Source: Psilocybe cubensis (lineage: Eukaryota). Taken from it: DNA of 64,000 nucleotides. The number at the start of each line of letters is the position of its first letter. Position 1 is the first letter of the stretch. Under the pieces are notes generated by a model, which saw only the letters and a list, made by a program, of their open reading frames with translations, did not search any database and was not told the origin of the DNA. The stretch spans positions 2,170,001 to 2,234,000 of the forward strand of contig CM039003.1 in NCBI GenBank assembly GCA_017499595.2, written 5' to 3'. This document shows positions 46,915-54,621 of the stretch, piece by piece. The position numbers and the translations under genes were made by a program.

Positions 46915-48857
46915 CTATAAGTCCGAGTCGGCTTTCGGCTCTTCTCGGGGGATAATCTGACCCAAATCAACAACCGTATAGAATGCGAAAGTCTTGACCT
47001 CAGCCTTTGAAGACTTGGATGGTCCGTCTATATCGTTGCTGTCGGCAGGCGCAGGGTCATCTGAGTGGTATGTATAAGATACCAGCATATTGAACTGAAT
47101 TAAAAATTAGGGATCAATCAAATTCGCAAAAGGCGCTCCTGACTCAGACTGACTCACTTTAACGTTCCCTCGAGCTTCTTTGCCAATCACGACCTCTCCT
47201 CCCACCAGGGTAACATTTGCCCGTTTCTCCAACACACCAACAGTTCGAACTTTCCCCCGTGCATCCGTCTCTCTCAAACGCCCCAGATCATCGTCATCGT
47301 CACCAAACATGTCTTCATCGTCCTCATACTCCCAAGCTTCCGCATAAGCAGCGACAGAGAAATGTGAATTTGGCAACGAAATAGCGAAAGGTGGTCGAGG
47401 AGGGGCTGCTTTCTCGGTCGTGCCGTTTTCTTTTGGCTGAACGGTTGAAACGTGGATTCTCTGAACAGACAATCGAACATTTATCTGGTCGTAAAGGGGG
47501 TTACTTAATGCCAGGTGGAATGGATATGTTCTTCCTGCATGCATAGCTCCGGCGTTGCTGTCTTCTACAGCAGTCGATACAGACCTTCCAAGGGATTTCT
47601 TCGCTGCCTCCGCTGTGAGGCGCTGTGCATGAGGTAATGAGACCGTGATTGCTGGCAGGTAGTTAGCGGCTACGAGCTTGATTTTATACCGCACAGACTG
47701 GGCTTTCTGCTCTGGTTTGATCAATATGTGCGTGCAGGCCGGGCATCGTTTAGACCGTTTAGAATGCAAGGGTATTCGTAGAGGCTTGAGCTCGCTGTGA
47801 CCTTATGAGAGCAAAATATAAAGTAGGAAAAGGGCTACTTACCTAGTTTGCAAAGGTGTTACCCAACTATTAACCCATCTCTGCTCGAGGGTCGAAATCT
47901 GTCCAATATCTTCCAAGTGGCTCATAAAATCTACATCTGACTCTCCGCCACCTGTCCCTAGGACACTGGCCTTGGAGATTTCAACACGACTCCGATATTC
48001 TGGCATCTCGTCTTTGTTCACACTTTTATCCTTCCCACTCCCTCTTCCCGATGTAGTCCTCGTCAACGGGTTATATTTGCTAACACCCGGGATATCACGA
48101 GCCAGAGCGGCGGCAGCGGCTGTAATAGAATTCGAATGAGTATGGTGTGAGTGCGCCGTACTGCTTCCATGAGCAGCCGGATGACTGAGGTTTGTAGAAG
48201 AGGAAAGTGATGATGCACGTATGAAAGGCTCAAAGTGTTCCTTCAGACGCTCAAACTCCAACGAATCCGGGGCTGAATCTTCGTATTTCTGCAGCTGCGC
48301 TATTAACCACAGCCAAGTAAGCTGTCCATGTCAAGAATAAGACGCCACGAAATGACGCACCAGCGAGACCTGTAGGTTTCTCGAATGTGATCTTCACTTC
48401 AGCAGAATCCCATCTGCAATGGTTGCAATACAGAAAGAAGGGAGGCTCGTTCAGTGCGCTTATTGGTATTGACAAACGACCATCTCCGGTATCTGGAGGG
48501 TCCGATGGTACCACTGAAAGGGTGTTGCGACAATTCGGACACATGAAGCAATTTCGAGCACATCTAGAGATGACACGCTATTTAAGAACATCAGGCGACT
48601 GAGTATTGTACACTATGGGCTTGCCTGTTCTTTTCAGCGCGTACACTGGCACTTGGGACCTCGAAAAGACAGTTCGGGCAGTAATATGAGCTGACTTCTA
48701 CAGATACGCATCGGTTGCACCGGATCGCGTCACATTCTTCGCAGAAAAAGAGGGTGTGGAGAGGATGAAAACTGTAAGAAGATGATGGTAGATGTGGGGG
48801 TGGTGGGTGCGGTGAGGTTGAAAGACACGAACAATGGTATAGAACAGTTGGAGCCAT
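46915..48857 (-). CDS. DCTN4: Dynactin p62 subunit
   Basis: LFFCEECDAIRCNRCVSVEVSSYYCPNCLFEVPSASVRAEKNRCARNCFMCPNC, YCNHCRWDS, PLRIPLHSKRSKRCPACTHILIKPE, LSNPLYD; last exon ends ADSDL-stop at 46915. Confidence 0.94.
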
Positions 48858-48923
48858 GGAAGTGTACTGTAACGAGTCAGTCAGTGTCCGTCGGATAATG
48901 GACACTTGCACGGCACGTGGGCG

Positions 48924-48929
48924 ACGCGT
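48924..48929. promoter_or_regulatory. MCB-like element (ACGCGT) in the short divergent promoter between dynactin p62 and exonuclease gene 1
   Basis: gcgACGCGTtc, about 140 bp upstream of the ATG at 49066. Confidence 0.4.
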
Positions 48930-49065
48930 TCAAATTTAAAATTAGCGACAGTGGTTCATGTTCTTCATGACTCGGCATGGGGCATTTTTCTCTTCCTTAC
49001 TGTCATCTAGCGCTACTAGTCTCTTTCGCCAAACATACATCTACCGACTTGGGGCTCCAGGTTTC

Positions 49066-51241
49066 ATGCCAAATCAAGGGTCTACTCGGTTTACTCGCAG
49101 TCAAGCTACCAATAGAGGTGTAACACCCAATTCATTCTGCGACATCTTGCAGAATTTGTCTCTCAACGACGATGGTGATTTTTCTCCAAGATTATACTCG
49201 GATTGATTGTTTGACTGTATGATCACTGGACTATAGAAGTAGATATCGGATGGGCCAGGCCGTCTCTTCCGAGATCCAATGGAACTAGACCATCTATCAG
49301 TGAGTGTACTGCCTGCTTAGTCTCAATAAGCTACAACAGTTCTTAGAGTTTCAGGCTATTGAGATCACGGAAAGCAGTCCTTCTCTGGAAACATCAGAGT
49401 TGCATATCTTTGGTGTGACCAAAGTGAGCCCTTAGTCTTTCTGGATTTGGATTGTGTATATTCATAGCGAACATACAGGCTGGCCACTCTCTTCTTGCTC
49501 GTGTTCAGGGTTTCGAACACTATTTCTACTATCCGGCCCCTCCTGGGCTTTTATCACGCGACCTTGATCCTCTCTGTGAATATGTCAATGTTGGTCCTAT
49601 CCGAACATCTCTGTGGAATTAACGAATAAATAGGACCTTGAACCTTAATCGCACAGAACGCCCTAAGCCCCCCAACACGAGCTGTCCCAAATCCTCCGTT
49701 GTCTGTATCATCAATCGACCTCCGACATGAGAAAACTGCCCCTCCTCCTGTGGGACGGGATACACCTTACTTGAGGATTTTTTTAGCAAGACATCACGAC
49801 ATTGATAAAGTCAAAGATATGTTATGCTTCGCTTTTGGTTGTTTCACCTTCTACTTACCTAGTTTCAAACACACTTCTTCACATCGGGTAAATGTCGATA
49901 CCGACAACTCTTTGCAACGCGCGAGGAGTCTCATGAAGCAGTGGTTCCTTATCACCTACGTTTCATGCTAGACACGGGAGTACGTCATTTCTATGAATGG
50001 AAATACTGTGTACTCACAATTTTAACACGTTCGCCTTAGATAAATGCAATGTCATGGCTCAAATTTGTCTCTAATAAATATGACATCGTTCCGGAAACGG
50101 AGAAAATTTCCACTTGCCAATTGGAAGTTGTCCTACAGTACAAGTAAGCCAAACAACATCTATCCCCACAACACTGTGTCGAGTCTTTTATTTAGTGATG
50201 AGCACATCCTGTTGTGCTCTCCGAGGGATAAAGAGGAGCTGTTTGCGCCTCTTCGTATTCTGAGTTACGATATCGAAACACACGTTCCGGCTGATGGCAC
50301 CTTCCCAAGTGCTACGAAGGATCCTGTTCTCCAAATAGGAAACATGGTCACCACCCACGGTAAGATTCTTTTCTGTAATTTTCTCCGATATTAATAGTAG
50401 TGCACAGGGTCGCATGAACCCACTATACGAGCCATATTCACCCTTGGGACATGCTCTCCTATCAATGGGGCAGAAGTGCGATCCTTCAAAACAGAGGCAG
50501 AAATGTTGCTTGCTTGGAGCCAATTTGTGAACGAGGTGGATCCAGATATTATCACTGGATATAACATCACGAAATTCGACACACCATACCTTCTAAACCG
50601 TGCTACAGCGTTGTCTCTGCCCAAATTTGCGCACCTTGGGAGAGTTAAATGTGAGTCGTTACGTTAAAGGCCATTTTGATAGCTCTAAAGGTTTCTATCT
50701 TCGTCATCAGCGTGGCGTCAGACTCTGCCTTACCCATTTATGAAAGTCGAGGAGTTTTCTCAGTGTCCGGGCTACAACGGGCGCTTACTTCTCGACGTCT
50801 TCCAACATATCCGCGAAGGCAATTACTCTGACTTCCAGGGGCCCGGAAAGTCAAAATTAAATTATGTTGCACAAGTGGCACTTTGGGACCAAAAAGAAGA
50901 TCTCCCCTACAAACAAATTCCAATTCTGCAGGCAGGCACTGCTAATGATAGACGAACACTCGCTGTGTATTGTCTGAAGGTGGGCCTTCTCACTTATCAG
51001 CAATGTCAATGATGTAGCTGACGCTTCCTGTCTGGAGGATACATATCTTCCGCTTCAATTGTTCACCATGTATAACCTGTTGGGAAGAGAATCGACCAAG
51101 GCTAAGGAGGCTCATGTCTCTTTGAATTCCAAGCGCAAGAAGCCATTCCTGAAAGATCTTTCGAGAGATTGTCGCAAGGCCCTCAGAGAGGATTATATCA
51201 TCCCAGACTCGAAGCTAAGTTCATTGCTGGACCAAAGATGA
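49066..51241 (+). CDS. Stand-alone DNA polymerase delta-like N-terminal plus 3'-5' exonuclease protein, no polymerase domain; copy 1
   Basis: Spliced WARPSLP..FQAIEI..LHIFGVTKAGHSLLARVQGFEHYFY, VPYHLRFMLDTGINAMSW, STCQLEV, ExoI APLRILSYDIET, ExoII VDPDIITGYNITKFDTPYLLNRA, ExoIII LAVYCLKDTYLP; stop at 51241. Confidence 0.88.
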
Positions 51242-51569
51242 AACTATGATGTACCGCTTCTTGAGAATCAATCGATATTCTGGAAGACATCGCGAACGTC
51301 ATATTCCAGGATACCTGTGGTTGTTCTGTGGTTAGGCTAATTCCCCAACCACAGGAAGATCAGGTTCTTTTATAAATGAATGTAAATATCAAAATTAGGT
51401 AGCCTGATTAATGCATGCAGATCTGTCGCAATTTGAATCAATCTTGCACAATTGGTTCTCCGGATTTGTCTGACTGAATGGTCAATGGCCTATCCAGTGT
51501 AGTATCCAGGTATGTAGTATTAATACCCATGCAACGAACGCATATCATCATATGCATCGTGCACGACGG

Positions 51570-51635
51570 ACGCGTGACCTGTTGCGTCGCATCAATTTCA
51601 CTAAGGCTGACTCGGCTCCGAGCTATAGTACGCGT
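51570..51635. promoter_or_regulatory. Two MCB-like elements (ACGCGT) upstream of exonuclease gene 2
   Basis: ACGCGT at 51570-51575 and 51630-51635, 150-220 bp upstream of the ATG at 51786. Confidence 0.45.
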
Positions 51636-51785
51636 CGACCATACTCGTCGCCCGTGCTAGTTTCTTCTGGAACCCTCCAAGACGCCTATAGGCCAGGAAC
51701 GTTTGGGGGCTCGTGTTAACCAAACTCCATCATCATCAATACCCCAGCTTTTCCCCCGACTGCAAATCGAATTCTAGTACTAGAA

Positions 51786-53900
51786 ATGGCCACAGGTCTT
51801 GCTCCTGCTGCTTCAGTTTCTGATGTCCTGAAGGAACTTTCCGTTAAAGAAAATGGTGAAGAATAAACAAATGTATCTAGACTGTGATTTTGATACTCCT
51901 TTATGAAACAGACGTGCAAAAGCCTTGGGAAAGACCTCCGCTTTCTGCATCCTATGCAGCCAAACCATGCATCAGTAAGTTTGTTGTCGTTGCATTGGCT
52001 ATCAACTTGTGTGTGACGTCCCCAGAATTCCAGAAAATTGACATCGCCGAGAGCAGCTACGACCTGGGATCTCCCGAGATACACCTTTTCGGAATCACTA
52101 AAGTAAGCAATCAATATGTGTCGAATCGGAAGAACATTATTTTGAATTCAGAGCTTGCAGAATGGCCATTCTATTCTCGTACGAGTTGTTGGATACGAGC
52201 ATTACGCGTATTACTTGGTCCCCAAAGGGTTCTCGAAAGATGATCTCGAACCTCTGCGCAACAATCTTAACGTCAGTGCTTGAAGAAATCCGTACTTATT
52301 CCTAAGAGCCATTCATGATTTTATGGGCCTCACACCATAGGAACTCATAGTGGAAAGTTACGAGGAAGTATCTTCCGCCCCTATCTCACGAATTGACCTC
52401 GAGAAGGGGAAAGGAGAACTTTCCTATCTAAAGATTATGGTTTCGGATTATCACGATCTAGAGTGTGTCCAAGATATGCATTGTTCGTTTTTGAAATGTT
52501 GTGCTGGTTTACTTAGTGAGCATTCCAAGGCACAAATCTTCCAATTGGGAAGATGTAAATATCGGGACATGTTCCCTAATCCTCAAAATCCATGCTGGAC
52601 AAGGAGGTATGTGCATTTTTGATCGAAAAGGGTTTTAACCAGCTCGTGGTTGACTTGGGCTCCCTTCTGTCCAGGTCAATGCCATGTCGTGGCTGAAGCT
52701 CACCGCTAAAAAATACAAGATTGTTCCAGCTGAAAACAAGATTTCGACTTGCCAGTTGGAAGTGTCCATCCAGTACGAACGAATAGCTTGATTAGTCTGA
52801 TCATCAACAATTTACTGACGTCGACGTATAGTGACGAGCATATCATGTTGACTTCAGGTCAGGCAGAAATGGGCCCATTGCGTATTCTGAGCTTCGACAT
52901 TGAGACTGACATTCCCGATGATCGTAATGTGTTCCCGACTGCGAGGAACTATCCCATCTTCACCATTGGAAATAGGATATCTACCTACGGTATGCCATTT
53001 TCCTTTAAAACGTTTTTTTAACAAAAAGTCGACCATGCAATTCAGGTCGTGCAAACAGTGACGATGTACAAATCGTGTTTACCCTTGGTTCGTGCTCTCC
53101 TATAAGTGGGGCTACTGTGGTTGCTTGTGAAGATGAAGCTGCATTGCTACTTGCGTGGAAAAGCTTCATAATTGAGGTTGATCCTGACATCGTTCTTGGC
53201 CATAACATCACTAGGTTCGACATGCCGTTTCTTTTGGGTCGAGCCATAGTGCATAATTTAGACGAATTCCCGTACCTTGGACGACTTAAATGCAAGTAAT
53301 CAATTATTATCGCTTGATCGCCAACTGACAGTTTTACGACCAATGGTAGCATTTCGTCAGGTCATGGAAGATCCATATGCGTTACCAGCCTGGAACGCCT
53401 TTGATAAATGTCCGGGATACGTCGGGCGCTTCGTTCTTGATATCTACAAGCATGCCTCGGATATAGGCATAACGGGTCGCGGGAGATCAACGCTAAACAG
53501 TCTTTCAGAGCGATTCCTGAACGACAAGAAAGAAAATCTTTCCTTCGACAAAATTCCGGGTTTGCAAGCCGGCACTGCTGACGATAGACGTACTCTTGCA
53601 ACATACTGTCTCAAGGTAAGTTTTCACTTGATATTCTATCTATGTATGCAAGTAATCAATATTTAATAGGATACGCTACTTCCACTTCATTTGATGAATA
53701 AAATGGAATGCCTGCCTATCCAAATCAAGCAAGCCAGAAAAGCCCATCTTCCATTGAACGCGATGCGCGAGAGACCATCTTTGAAGGACACTTCACAGAT
53801 TTGTCAGAAACGCAAGGCAGAGATAGAGGGTGATTCTAATACTAACTATACTCTCGATGGAGAACGCGCGTTGAAAAGACAACGCTCTGACGCATACTAA
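51786..53900 (+). CDS. Stand-alone Pol delta-like exonuclease, copy 2 (carries an apparent 34-nt deletion; may be a pseudogene or rescued by an alternative donor)
   Basis: WERPPL..FQKIDI..IHLFGITKNGHSILVRVVGYEHY, VNAMSW, STCQLEV, GPLRILSFDIET, VDPDIVLGHNITRFDMPFLLGRA, LATYCLKDTLLP. Intron positions match copy 1; one GC donor at 53292; stop at 53900. Confidence 0.8.
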
Positions 53901-54621
53901 ACAACTTGGCTATGAAATTTTGGCGCTTGGAGTCGTTACATTTAGAATGGATCTCAATTCTGGGCCCTCGAAGTTCTTGATATAACTTTTTATATTGTAC
54001 GGCAAAGGGTACGGTTTACTAGTATATAGGTGAACTATCTTGACCCCAAAGGTACTCATGACGTCATCTACTCGCTTATCTATGTTTCCCACCATCTACG
54101 TAAGCAGCACGCGTACCCGGAACCGGTAATTATGTGCCGACCCGCATTTTTATTGCACCTTCAAGCTTCAAGTTGGCTCTTTCTTAAACACAACCATTTA
54201 TTGTCCGTCGCCGATGCCCGACATGTTTTCCGATGAATTTTGCGCCTCTCCCTTGCAACCTGTTGCTGCTCACTAGAGGCACGTCTCATAAAAAAAGTTA
54301 ACTTTTTGCGTGCAAGTTCGTAGGAAAACTTCATATCTCGGTGTCTCTCAAAGTTGCCCTGCGTCCTACTATGAGCCACTATTTTCTCAGACAAATGTAC
54401 ACTTAGTGCATTTATGTCTTTGTGGTACCAGCATTTAATATGGCTGTTAAGCGCATTTGTGACTCGTATTCTATGACCTTCTCCAAACCTTCCCGTACGG
54501 TCGGCACCGCGAGTCAGTCTTGGTTTTGGGTTACTCTGCCGGCTACCTTCATCCTTCGATTCCCACACATTCCATATAAAAGGACCTCTAACCCCTTGGT
54601 AAGCCTTAACACATCACCCTC

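Follow-up and report, generated by a model that had tools for sequence, protein, structure and literature searches.

The closest described relatives of the genes analysed here are the DNA polymerase delta (Pol delta) catalytic subunits, yeast Pol3 and human POLD1, whose C-terminal Cys-rich domain (PF14260) binds the B subunit. The genes, termed copy 1 and copy 2, stand in tandem on the forward strand at positions 49066-53900 of a 64 000-nucleotide stretch of Psilocybe cubensis contig CM039003.1 (positions 2,170,001 to 2,234,000, assembly GCA_017499595.2), referred to here as the window. They are quite probably tandem paralogs of a family that is derived from POL3/POLD1 and lacks everything from the palm onward, and are predicted to encode free-standing DEDDy 3'-5' DNA exonucleases. 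This truncated family is like Pol3/POLD1 in sequence (35-36% identity to 3iay), in fold (template modelling score, TM(query), of 0.77-0.80), in its ExoI-III motifs, including the ExoIII cysteine, and in the N-terminal SFxxxL motif. It is unlike them in having no palm, fingers and thumb (PF00136) and no C-terminal Cys-rich domain, in evolving ~2.2 times faster and in existing beside the full-length gene, as observed in at least 11 species.

Among the eukaryotic B-family paralogs, Pol alpha, Pol zeta and the C-terminal half of Pol epsilon have lost the exonuclease. In Pol zeta and the C-terminal half of Pol epsilon the loss is thus the opposite one, as the exonuclease is inactivated there, whereas the truncated family keeps it; for Pol zeta, inactivation is stated in a portion of PMC7544198. 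The N388 fragment of T4 DNA polymerase (1noy), for which an excerpt of PMC6343910 reports wild-type-like 3'-5' exonuclease activity, is likewise an N-terminal and exonuclease module without the polymerase part and is among the sequence matches of P0002, the P. cyanescens ortholog of copy 1. Unlike the genes described here, however, it is a laboratory truncation of a phage enzyme and not a natural gene, and the match is distant (E = 1.3e-4). E. coli DnaQ (epsilon) and mammalian TREX1 and TREX2 are separate 3'-5' exonucleases of DnaQ-like fold that act on 3' ends produced by other enzymes; part of PMC6009725 reports that TREX2 interacts with Pol delta and raises its accuracy, and stand-alone DnaQ proofreaders are discussed in a section of PMC12926913. 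These enzymes are of the DEDDh type and of independent origin, whereas the truncated family is of the DEDDy type and comes from a B-family polymerase, so that the analogy is functional only. The DEDDh motif was not found in the family, the ExoIII tyrosine (YCLKD) being present in all rows. The same section of PMC12926913 describes bacterial PolX-like proteins that lack the polymerase region, which are similar in that polymerase genes have been reduced to part of their functions, but which belong to a different family.

No publication about fungal Pol delta paralogs without the polymerase part emerged from full-text searches, supplements excluded, and the locus tags CC1G_11689 and CC1G_07196 were in no main text found in this way. 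The terms 'DNA polymerase' and 'exonuclease' have 0 occurrences in the portion of the fruiting-body review PMC10282164 that was available. According to a part of PMC7544198, a survey of PolB discarded sequences without a PolB domain as false positives, and such a survey would therefore not report the truncated family. The family is apparently undescribed, and is a natural, conserved, polymerase-less derivative of a replicative proofreader.

Domains, motifs and end point of the two genes

Both genes are homologous to the N-terminal and exonuclease domains of Pol delta, as an earlier sequence-only reading of this DNA had proposed from motif alignment. Two full-length Agaricales POL3 proteins (1065 and 1079 amino acids) were used as tblastn queries, and only POL3 residues 72-560 gave matches, at 49251-51259 and 51926-53831. 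Residues 560-1065 had no match anywhere in the 64 kb window, in agreement with the earlier remark that no palm motifs follow downstream. The sole Pfam family on the exons, and on the orthologs P0002 and P0301, was PF03104 (DNA_pol_B_exo1); the polymerase domain PF00136 was not found, as had been predicted for such a search. On copy 1, PF03104 scored 84.1 bits with exon 9 and 27.7 bits with exon 8 (cut-off 23); on copy 2 it scored 64.7 bits with exon 9 and 19.5 bits, under the cut-off of 23, with exon 8 alone; and on P0002 it scored 167.4 bits. A match of the last exon of copy 1 to DUF6312 (19.3 bits against a cut-off of 27) was dismissed as sub-threshold. Among the aligned proteins, PF00136 and PF14260 are absent from the truncated rows, and PF14260 is present in the full-length POL3 rows. 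Since the polymerase and Cys-rich domains were tested for and are absent, the proteins are not DNA polymerases.

The fold was analysed using P0002 (545 amino acids; 62-63% identity to copy 1). In a phmmer search of the PDB, residues 63-527 of this protein align to residues 113-575 of yeast Pol3 with E = 1e-85 (3iay). An AlphaFold2 model of P0002, generated from a 25-sequence family alignment, reached a predicted local distance difference test (pLDDT) of 86.1 and a predicted TM-score (pTM) of 0.86, and its top Foldseek matches were the yeast Pol delta structures 3iay, 6p1h and 7kc0, with TM(query) 0.77-0.80. Structure prediction had been suggested as a check, and the model of the ortholog superposes on yeast Pol3 with a root mean square deviation of ~3.0 A over ~500 columns.

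The gene models and the catalytic motifs are as follows.

49066-51241, + strand: copy 1 gene, ATG to stop, 11 exons, 1611-nucleotide coding sequence, 536 amino acids
49066-49174, 49237-49299, 49347-49423, 49479-49589, 49657-49816, 49873-49979, + strand: copy 1 exons 1-6
50040-50143, 50196-50359, 50408-50650, 50711-50979, 51038-51241, + strand: copy 1 exons 7-11
50269-50280, + strand: copy 1 ExoI, DIET (D269, E271)
50563-50580, + strand: copy 1 ExoII, NITKFD (N351, D356)
50968-51040, + strand: copy 1 ExoIII, YCLK/D (Y466, D470), split by intron 10 (50980-51037)
51242-51785, + strand: spacer between the copies, with the copy 1 3' untranslated region, then the copy 2 promoter and 5' region
51786-53900, + strand: copy 2 gene, ATG to stop, 11 exons, 1530-nucleotide coding sequence, 509 amino acids
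51786-51855, 51912-51974, 52026-52102, 52161-52271, 52341-52473, 52534-52610, + strand: copy 2 exons 1-6
52534-52610, + strand: copy 2 exon 6, by eye ~31 nucleotides shorter than copy 1 exon 6
52675-52772, 52832-52989, 53046-53291, 53350-53615, 53670-53900, + strand: copy 2 exons 7-11
52896-52907, + strand: copy 2 ExoI, DIET (D232, E234)
53204-53221, + strand: copy 2 ExoII, NITRFD (N316, D321)
53604-53672, + strand: copy 2 ExoIII, YCLK/D (Y430, D434), split by intron 10

Position 49066 is the A of the copy 1 ATG, the copy 1 stop codon lies at 51239-51241, and 53900 is the final base of the copy 2 stop codon. All DEDDy residues are kept in both copies, as the sequence-only reading had stated, with the correction that ExoIII is whole only after splicing, because its aspartate is encoded by the last exon. 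The claim that the copies are strongly diverged yet share their introns was borne out on the full models, which are 46.2% identical (228/493 aligned residues) and have 10/10 intron positions and phases in common, the copy 2 model having been partly built by homology to copy 1, with junctions outside RNA coverage placed in that way.

The copy 1 protein ends in ...RKALREDYIIPDSKLSSLLDQR, followed by the stop codon. In a C-terminal alignment its DYIIPD segment aligns to the GYLVPA / NIVIPN segment of POL3, ~12-15 residues before YEGATVIEP, which is where the earlier reading had placed the end of the gene. The YEGATV point is what we take to be the Pol3 boundary between the second segment of the N-terminal domain and the palm. 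Given this boundary, the product would be a complete N-terminal-domain and exonuclease module of a B-family polymerase. At the other end of the protein the Pol delta motif SF-x-D-V-L is retained (SFADVL), and a KKRR-like basic patch upstream of it, judged by reading N-termini, is common to POL3 and many truncated members. Inspection of the N-termini gave no consistent pattern of a mitochondrial targeting signal.

Transcripts and unusual introns

RNA contigs were available from runs X1 and X2 of one study, and DNA of the same organism from runs X3 and X4 of a second study. The X1 and X2 contigs skip introns that the X3 and X4 DNA contains, and thus represent spliced RNA. Copy 1 was covered by contigs of 1612 and 1513 nucleotides, one per run, in which nine of its ten introns (47-67 nucleotides each) were seen as joints, eight of the nine being GT..AG. 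Intron 1 (49175-49236, GT..AG) is a predicted one that was not among these joints, and a separate RNA contig, 48981-49166, holds the 5' end of the gene. The two long contigs stop at 51262 and 51372, 21 and 131 nucleotides past the stop codon. The X1 and X2 RNA contigs contain neither a splice onward from the copy 1 transcript, into a polymerase domain or otherwise, nor a joint connecting the two genes, and RNA depth in the spacer was nil over bin 51485-51653 and under 1 over bin 51654-51822 in these runs. X3 and X4 DNA each traverse the entire 5 kb in one piece with no joints.

For copy 2, run X2 gave joints at 51855/51912 and 51974/52026, corresponding to introns 1 and 2, and a loose end at 52102 that runs into the first letters of exon 4 and so marks the intron 3 donor. 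Further RNA pieces lie over 53053-53237 and 53685-54000, with 52161-53005 and 53344-53681 outside the RNA coverage. Contig depth was 5-9 for copy 2 compared with 24 for copy 1, contig depth being a poor measure of expression. The spliced models from RNA that the earlier reading had called for were therefore obtained for copy 1, at nine of ten introns, and for copy 2 in fragments only, at introns 1-2 and the intron 3 donor.

One intron of copy 1 is of an unusual class.

49817-49872, + strand: copy 1 intron 5, AT..AC (ATATGT...AAACAC), with RNA in X1 and X2

In both runs the RNA joint goes from 49817 to 49875 with a single G between, and AT-AC is the sole reading of this intron that fits the letters and a known intron class. 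Its donor is unlike the U12-type consensus. The predicted copy 2 counterpart (52474-52533) reads ATATGC...GGCAC. Several public models of family members (e.g. P0006, P0011 and P0002) show odd insertions or deletions at the intron 5 position, which suggests that gene predictors fail there. At 49874, next to this intron, the window has C where X3 and X4 DNA and both RNA contigs have G, changing codon 174 from GAG (E) to GAC (D); the C is a private allele or an assembly error. Intron 9 of copy 2 (53292-53349) is a predicted GC-AG intron with a GCAAGT donor, outside the RNA coverage.

The public models of both window genes are partial. P0001 (303 amino acids) skips the ExoIII region, which is contradicted by the RNA contigs; P0018 (348 amino acids) agrees with the first 348 amino acids of our copy 2 model, except at intron 5, for which it takes a GT-AG alternative, and stops where it reads into the predicted GC-AG intron. 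The genome is that of a fungus and rich in introns, and copy 1 exon 10 shares 97% identity with a protein of Psilocybe cubensis and 67% with one of P. cyanescens. Public models of the family are often partial or fused (P0001, P0018, P0121, P0009), and their usual names, 'DNA polymerase delta catalytic subunit' or 'ribonuclease H-like', mask the family. The non-canonical AT-AC and GC-AG introns are probably one cause of the faulty annotations.

The gene pair is flanked upstream by a dynactin p62 homolog (PF05502) on the - strand at 47107-48929 and downstream by an epoxide hydrolase gene (PF06441) on the + strand from ~54610, with no mobile-element-like features in its immediate flanks. In the spacer, both DNA runs X3 and X4 have an 8-base deletion relative to the window at 51541.

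The family across Agaricales

A length-restricted search with P0002 gave 785 hits (E <= 0.001) among 8000 candidates, and the best 120 of the 785 were considered. In the best 13 hits below the query, PF03104 is the sole Pfam family. Of these, twelve measure 469-542 amino acids, and in the remaining one, P0009 (890 amino acids), the family part is preceded by ~380 unrelated residues. Eleven of the 13 come from named Agaricales species, on contigs of 0.19-3.0 Mb, and the genera among the best hits include Galerina, Hebeloma, Agrocybe, Gymnopilus, Pholiota, Hypholoma and Crepidotus. A HMMER search of 1.84 billion representatives was then used, and 378 retrieved proteins were scored on profile hidden Markov models (HMMs) of the truncated family and of the N-terminal half of POL3; 46 scored higher on the truncated-family HMM. 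Thirty further representatives were looked up, with a species name for 22, and the 20 named proteins that favour the truncated-family HMM are all from Agaricales but one, from the yeast Wickerhamomyces pijperi. Further members were found in Mycena, Roridomyces, Favolaschia, Dendrothele, Armillaria, Guyanagaster, Coprinellus, Coprinopsis cinerea, Marasmius, Cyathus and Pholiota. The total of named Agaricales species with a similarly truncated member is 35, the proteins being ~420-560 amino acids long with PF03104 only and lying on contigs of 0.1-5 Mb. A separate full-length POL3 (1049-1103 amino acids; PF00136 and PF14260) is present in at least 11 species that have the truncated form.

The members finish at the same position of the C-terminal alignment, before YEGATV and shortly after (D/G)Y-x-x-x-D, and 0-16 residues follow the match to the family HMM in the top 13 members, with P0121 and P0009 in the same range. 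Local duplication is recurrent. P0121 of Gymnopilus dilepis is a fused two-copy model of 1071 amino acids; C. cinerea has three members with neighbouring accession numbers and annotated splice variants; paired members share a contig in Favolaschia, Mycena vulgaris and Psilocybe cf. subviscida; and P. cubensis has a third member, P0020 (public model of 307 amino acids), on another contig. One 519-amino-acid member sits on a contig of 1730 bp, which is too short for introns, and so it probably stems from a transcript.

Some shortened proteins were found outside Agaricales. P0243 of Pilobolus umbonatus (541 amino acids) and P0345 of Wickerhamomyces pijperi (593 amino acids) are truncated and Pol delta-like, and join the truncated clade in a 57-row tree on long branches (1.10 and 2.34); the POL3 HMM score of the Pilobolus protein is above its family HMM score. 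These two could be independent truncations, annotation splits or a case of long-branch attraction. In Boletales, P0017 of Leucogyrophana mollusca (708 amino acids) and P0034 of Hygrophoropsis aurantiaca (728 amino acids) are extra POL3-like proteins with a partial polymerase domain. Both species also have full-length POL3 (P0133 and P0188), and both proteins score as POL3-like and not as truncated-family; they may be fragments or another sort of shortened paralog.

The active site is preserved in a protein that otherwise diverges fast. ExoI D-x-E, ExoII N-x3-F-D and ExoIII Y-x3-D are kept in 28/28 truncated rows and in both window copies, and the 25-sequence alignment has 17 invariant columns, which include D273, E275, N355, F359 and D360, with Y469 and D473 kept in at least 90%. 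The 33 POL3 rows have 195 columns with 90% or more conservation, and only 61 of these are still conserved in the truncated rows, a count made on 41 truncated rows that is slightly redundant, with P0242 entered twice and the Pilobolus P0243 included. Retention peaks near ExoII (14/19 in copy 1 residues 301-350) and is nil in copy 1 residues 101-200 (0/12) and in the C-terminal tail (0/12). Across the same seven species (21 pairs), the truncated proteins have a median identity of 55.5% and POL3 one of 79.7%, a p-distance ratio of 2.2. Judged on these alignments, the protein evolves fast around an exonuclease centre that is strictly preserved. Copy 1 itself keeps 59/60 family-conserved residues and differs from the X3/X4 DNA by 6 synonymous and 2 nonsynonymous changes, and its polymorphism looks constrained.

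Two maximum-likelihood trees, of 55 and 57 rows, were built by quick searches, with support from the SH-like approximate likelihood ratio test (SH-aLRT) only. The truncated proteins form one clade (SH-aLRT 94 with 55 rows, 95 with 57), separate from an Agaricomycetes POL3 clade (99). Copy 1 pairs with P. cyanescens P0002 (94 and 96), the sister of these two is copy 2 (95 and 96), and P0020 follows (94 and 85). On this topology the tandem duplication is one that arose within the Psilocybe lineage and is not ancient; it probably predates the split of P. cubensis and P. cyanescens, with some uncertainty given the long branch of copy 2. Separate duplications gave rise to the Gymnopilus copies and to the Coprinopsis copies (99 each). 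The truncated branches are long and were flagged by the tree program. In the unconstrained tree the truncated proteins lie outside the clade of Agaricomycetes POL3, but a grouping of the Agaricales truncated proteins with Agaricomycetes POL3 was not rejected by the approximately unbiased (AU) test (p = 0.273). Because of this result the tree does not fix the depth of origin, and dating the family from it was rejected. A minimum age for the family is set by the sampled Agaricales. The sequence-only reading had inferred an old, selected family; this stands for the family, as one clade across Agaricales with invariant catalytic residues, and has to be amended for the tandem pair, which belongs to the Psilocybe lineage and in which copy 2 shows signs of relaxed or diversifying evolution.

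Predicted activity and alternative explanations

In the mechanism that we propose, a POL3/POLD1 gene would have been duplicated and the duplicate would have lost everything from the palm domain on. The product would be a metal-dependent DEDDy exonuclease whose ancestral proofreading site would hold a frayed or single-stranded 3' end by a few nucleotides, which would then be removed distributively. Having lost the thumb and C-terminal Cys domains, it would not depend on the Pol31/Pol32/PCNA holoenzyme, and it would presumably work in the nucleus, since many members keep the KKRR-like patch upstream of SFADVL. Candidate roles are proofreading in trans, trimming of ends in repair and defence against mobile DNA.

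Several points weigh against this reading. The structural and PDB results come from the P. cyanescens ortholog, not from the window proteins. Of 62 family-conserved columns (90% level), 61 are also POL3-conserved, and in the absence of residues conserved in the family only, the sequence gives no pointer to a specific new substrate. The fast evolution could partly reflect weak constraint. The remaining points concern copy 2. A deletion in its exon 6 disrupts the ancestral frame, the ancestral donor GTATGT at 52607 giving 1526 nucleotides with a broken frame and many stops, and an open frame needs the shifted donor GTGCAT at 52611, which gives 1530 nucleotides at the loss and replacement of the conserved LRFMxD segment; P0018 has the same RRY/VNAMSW junction as this shifted-donor model. 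Copy 2 differs from the X3/X4 DNA by 1 synonymous and 6 nonsynonymous changes, compared with the 6 and 2 of copy 1 (Fisher p = 0.041, on very small counts). It keeps 57/62 family-conserved residues, and its RNA cover is lower and fragmentary.

It is possible, if on the unlikely side, that copy 2, and not copy 1, is a decaying or neofunctionalising duplicate, pseudogene-bound or diversifying, whose job differs from that of copy 1. The nonsynonymous excess, the exon 6 deletion and the fragmentary, shallow RNA contigs, as far as their depth can be taken as a measure, point this way, as does a terminal branch about twice that of copy 1 (1.23 compared with 0.60, and 0.98 compared with 0.51, in the two trees). 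Against it, the copy 2 frame is open over 509 codons and 10 introns, given the one shifted donor; its DEDDy residues are all intact; its 57/62 family-conserved residues are within the range of other members; and it is transcribed, and spliced at both introns that RNA covers. Moreover, in the trees the copies separated earlier than P. cubensis and P. cyanescens did (SH-aLRT 95-96), which would leave a long time for a frame to stay open under neutrality. Copy 2 looks to be under relaxed constraint or diversifying; our preferred view is that the duplicate is derived but functional, and decay is a serious competing possibility. In the main reading, copy 1 is conserved, is the better expressed of the two and is orthologous to the one gene of P. 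cyanescens, and copy 2 is an older, faster-evolving duplicate.

Within the reading of both proteins as free-standing DNA exonucleases, a more specific role can be envisaged, which we regard as doubtful at present: a lineage-specific, fast-evolving and repeatedly duplicated nuclear 3'-5' exonuclease that acts in trans, either in TREX1-like genome defence or as an extrinsic proofreader. In the first variant it might trim the 3' ends of retroelement or foreign DNA, and in the second it might add to replication fidelity in long-lived mycelia. Such a role is allowed by local duplications that arose independently in Psilocybe, Gymnopilus, Coprinopsis, Mycena and Favolaschia, and by the ~2.2-fold faster divergence around an invariant active site together with the nonsynonymous excess of copy 2. 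Fast evolution and recurrent local duplication are what would be expected of a conflict gene; relaxed constraint is also compatible with them.

An improbable alternative is that the proteins are not nucleases in vivo and serve as regulators or decoys, for instance as competitors of Pol delta for the partners that its N-terminal region binds or for 3' ends of DNA. The retained SFADVL motif and basic patch of POL3 would suit such a function, as would the lack of family-specific conserved residues. Conservation is, however, strongest on the catalytic carboxylates, the tyrosine and the ExoII region, while the N-terminal domain and the tail vary freely, and a decoy would not need its active site intact in 28/28 rows. 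That the substrate is RNA or an RNA-DNA hybrid, as for DEDDy enzymes of the RNase D / Rrp6 type, is very improbable. DEDDy nucleases do include RNases, and the public label 'ribonuclease H-like' could be taken as a hint, but it is a fold-superfamily label only; the closest relatives in sequence and fold are DNA proofreading domains, and no RNA-specific family was matched in Pfam. Finally, an artefact, be it a break in the assembly, one half of a wrongly annotated POL3 or fragments of dead genes, which P0001 (303 amino acids) and P0018 (348 amino acids) on their own would suggest, is effectively refuted by the two independent DNA assemblies (X3 and X4) that span the 5 kb, the spliced mRNA that terminates past the stop codon, the same end position in homologs of dozens of species on Mb-scale contigs and the 519-amino-acid member that is probably a transcript. 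The sequence-only reading had likewise rejected an assembly break.

Whereas eukaryotic B-family paralogs usually lose the exonuclease, here a natural, conserved paralog of the main lagging-strand replicase has retained the proofreading module alone. If active, the free-standing exonucleases predicted here would be a natural experiment on whether a B-family proofreading domain can work without its polymerase, on proofreading in trans in eukaryotes, and on the cause of fast evolution and repeated duplication of such a gene in mushrooms.

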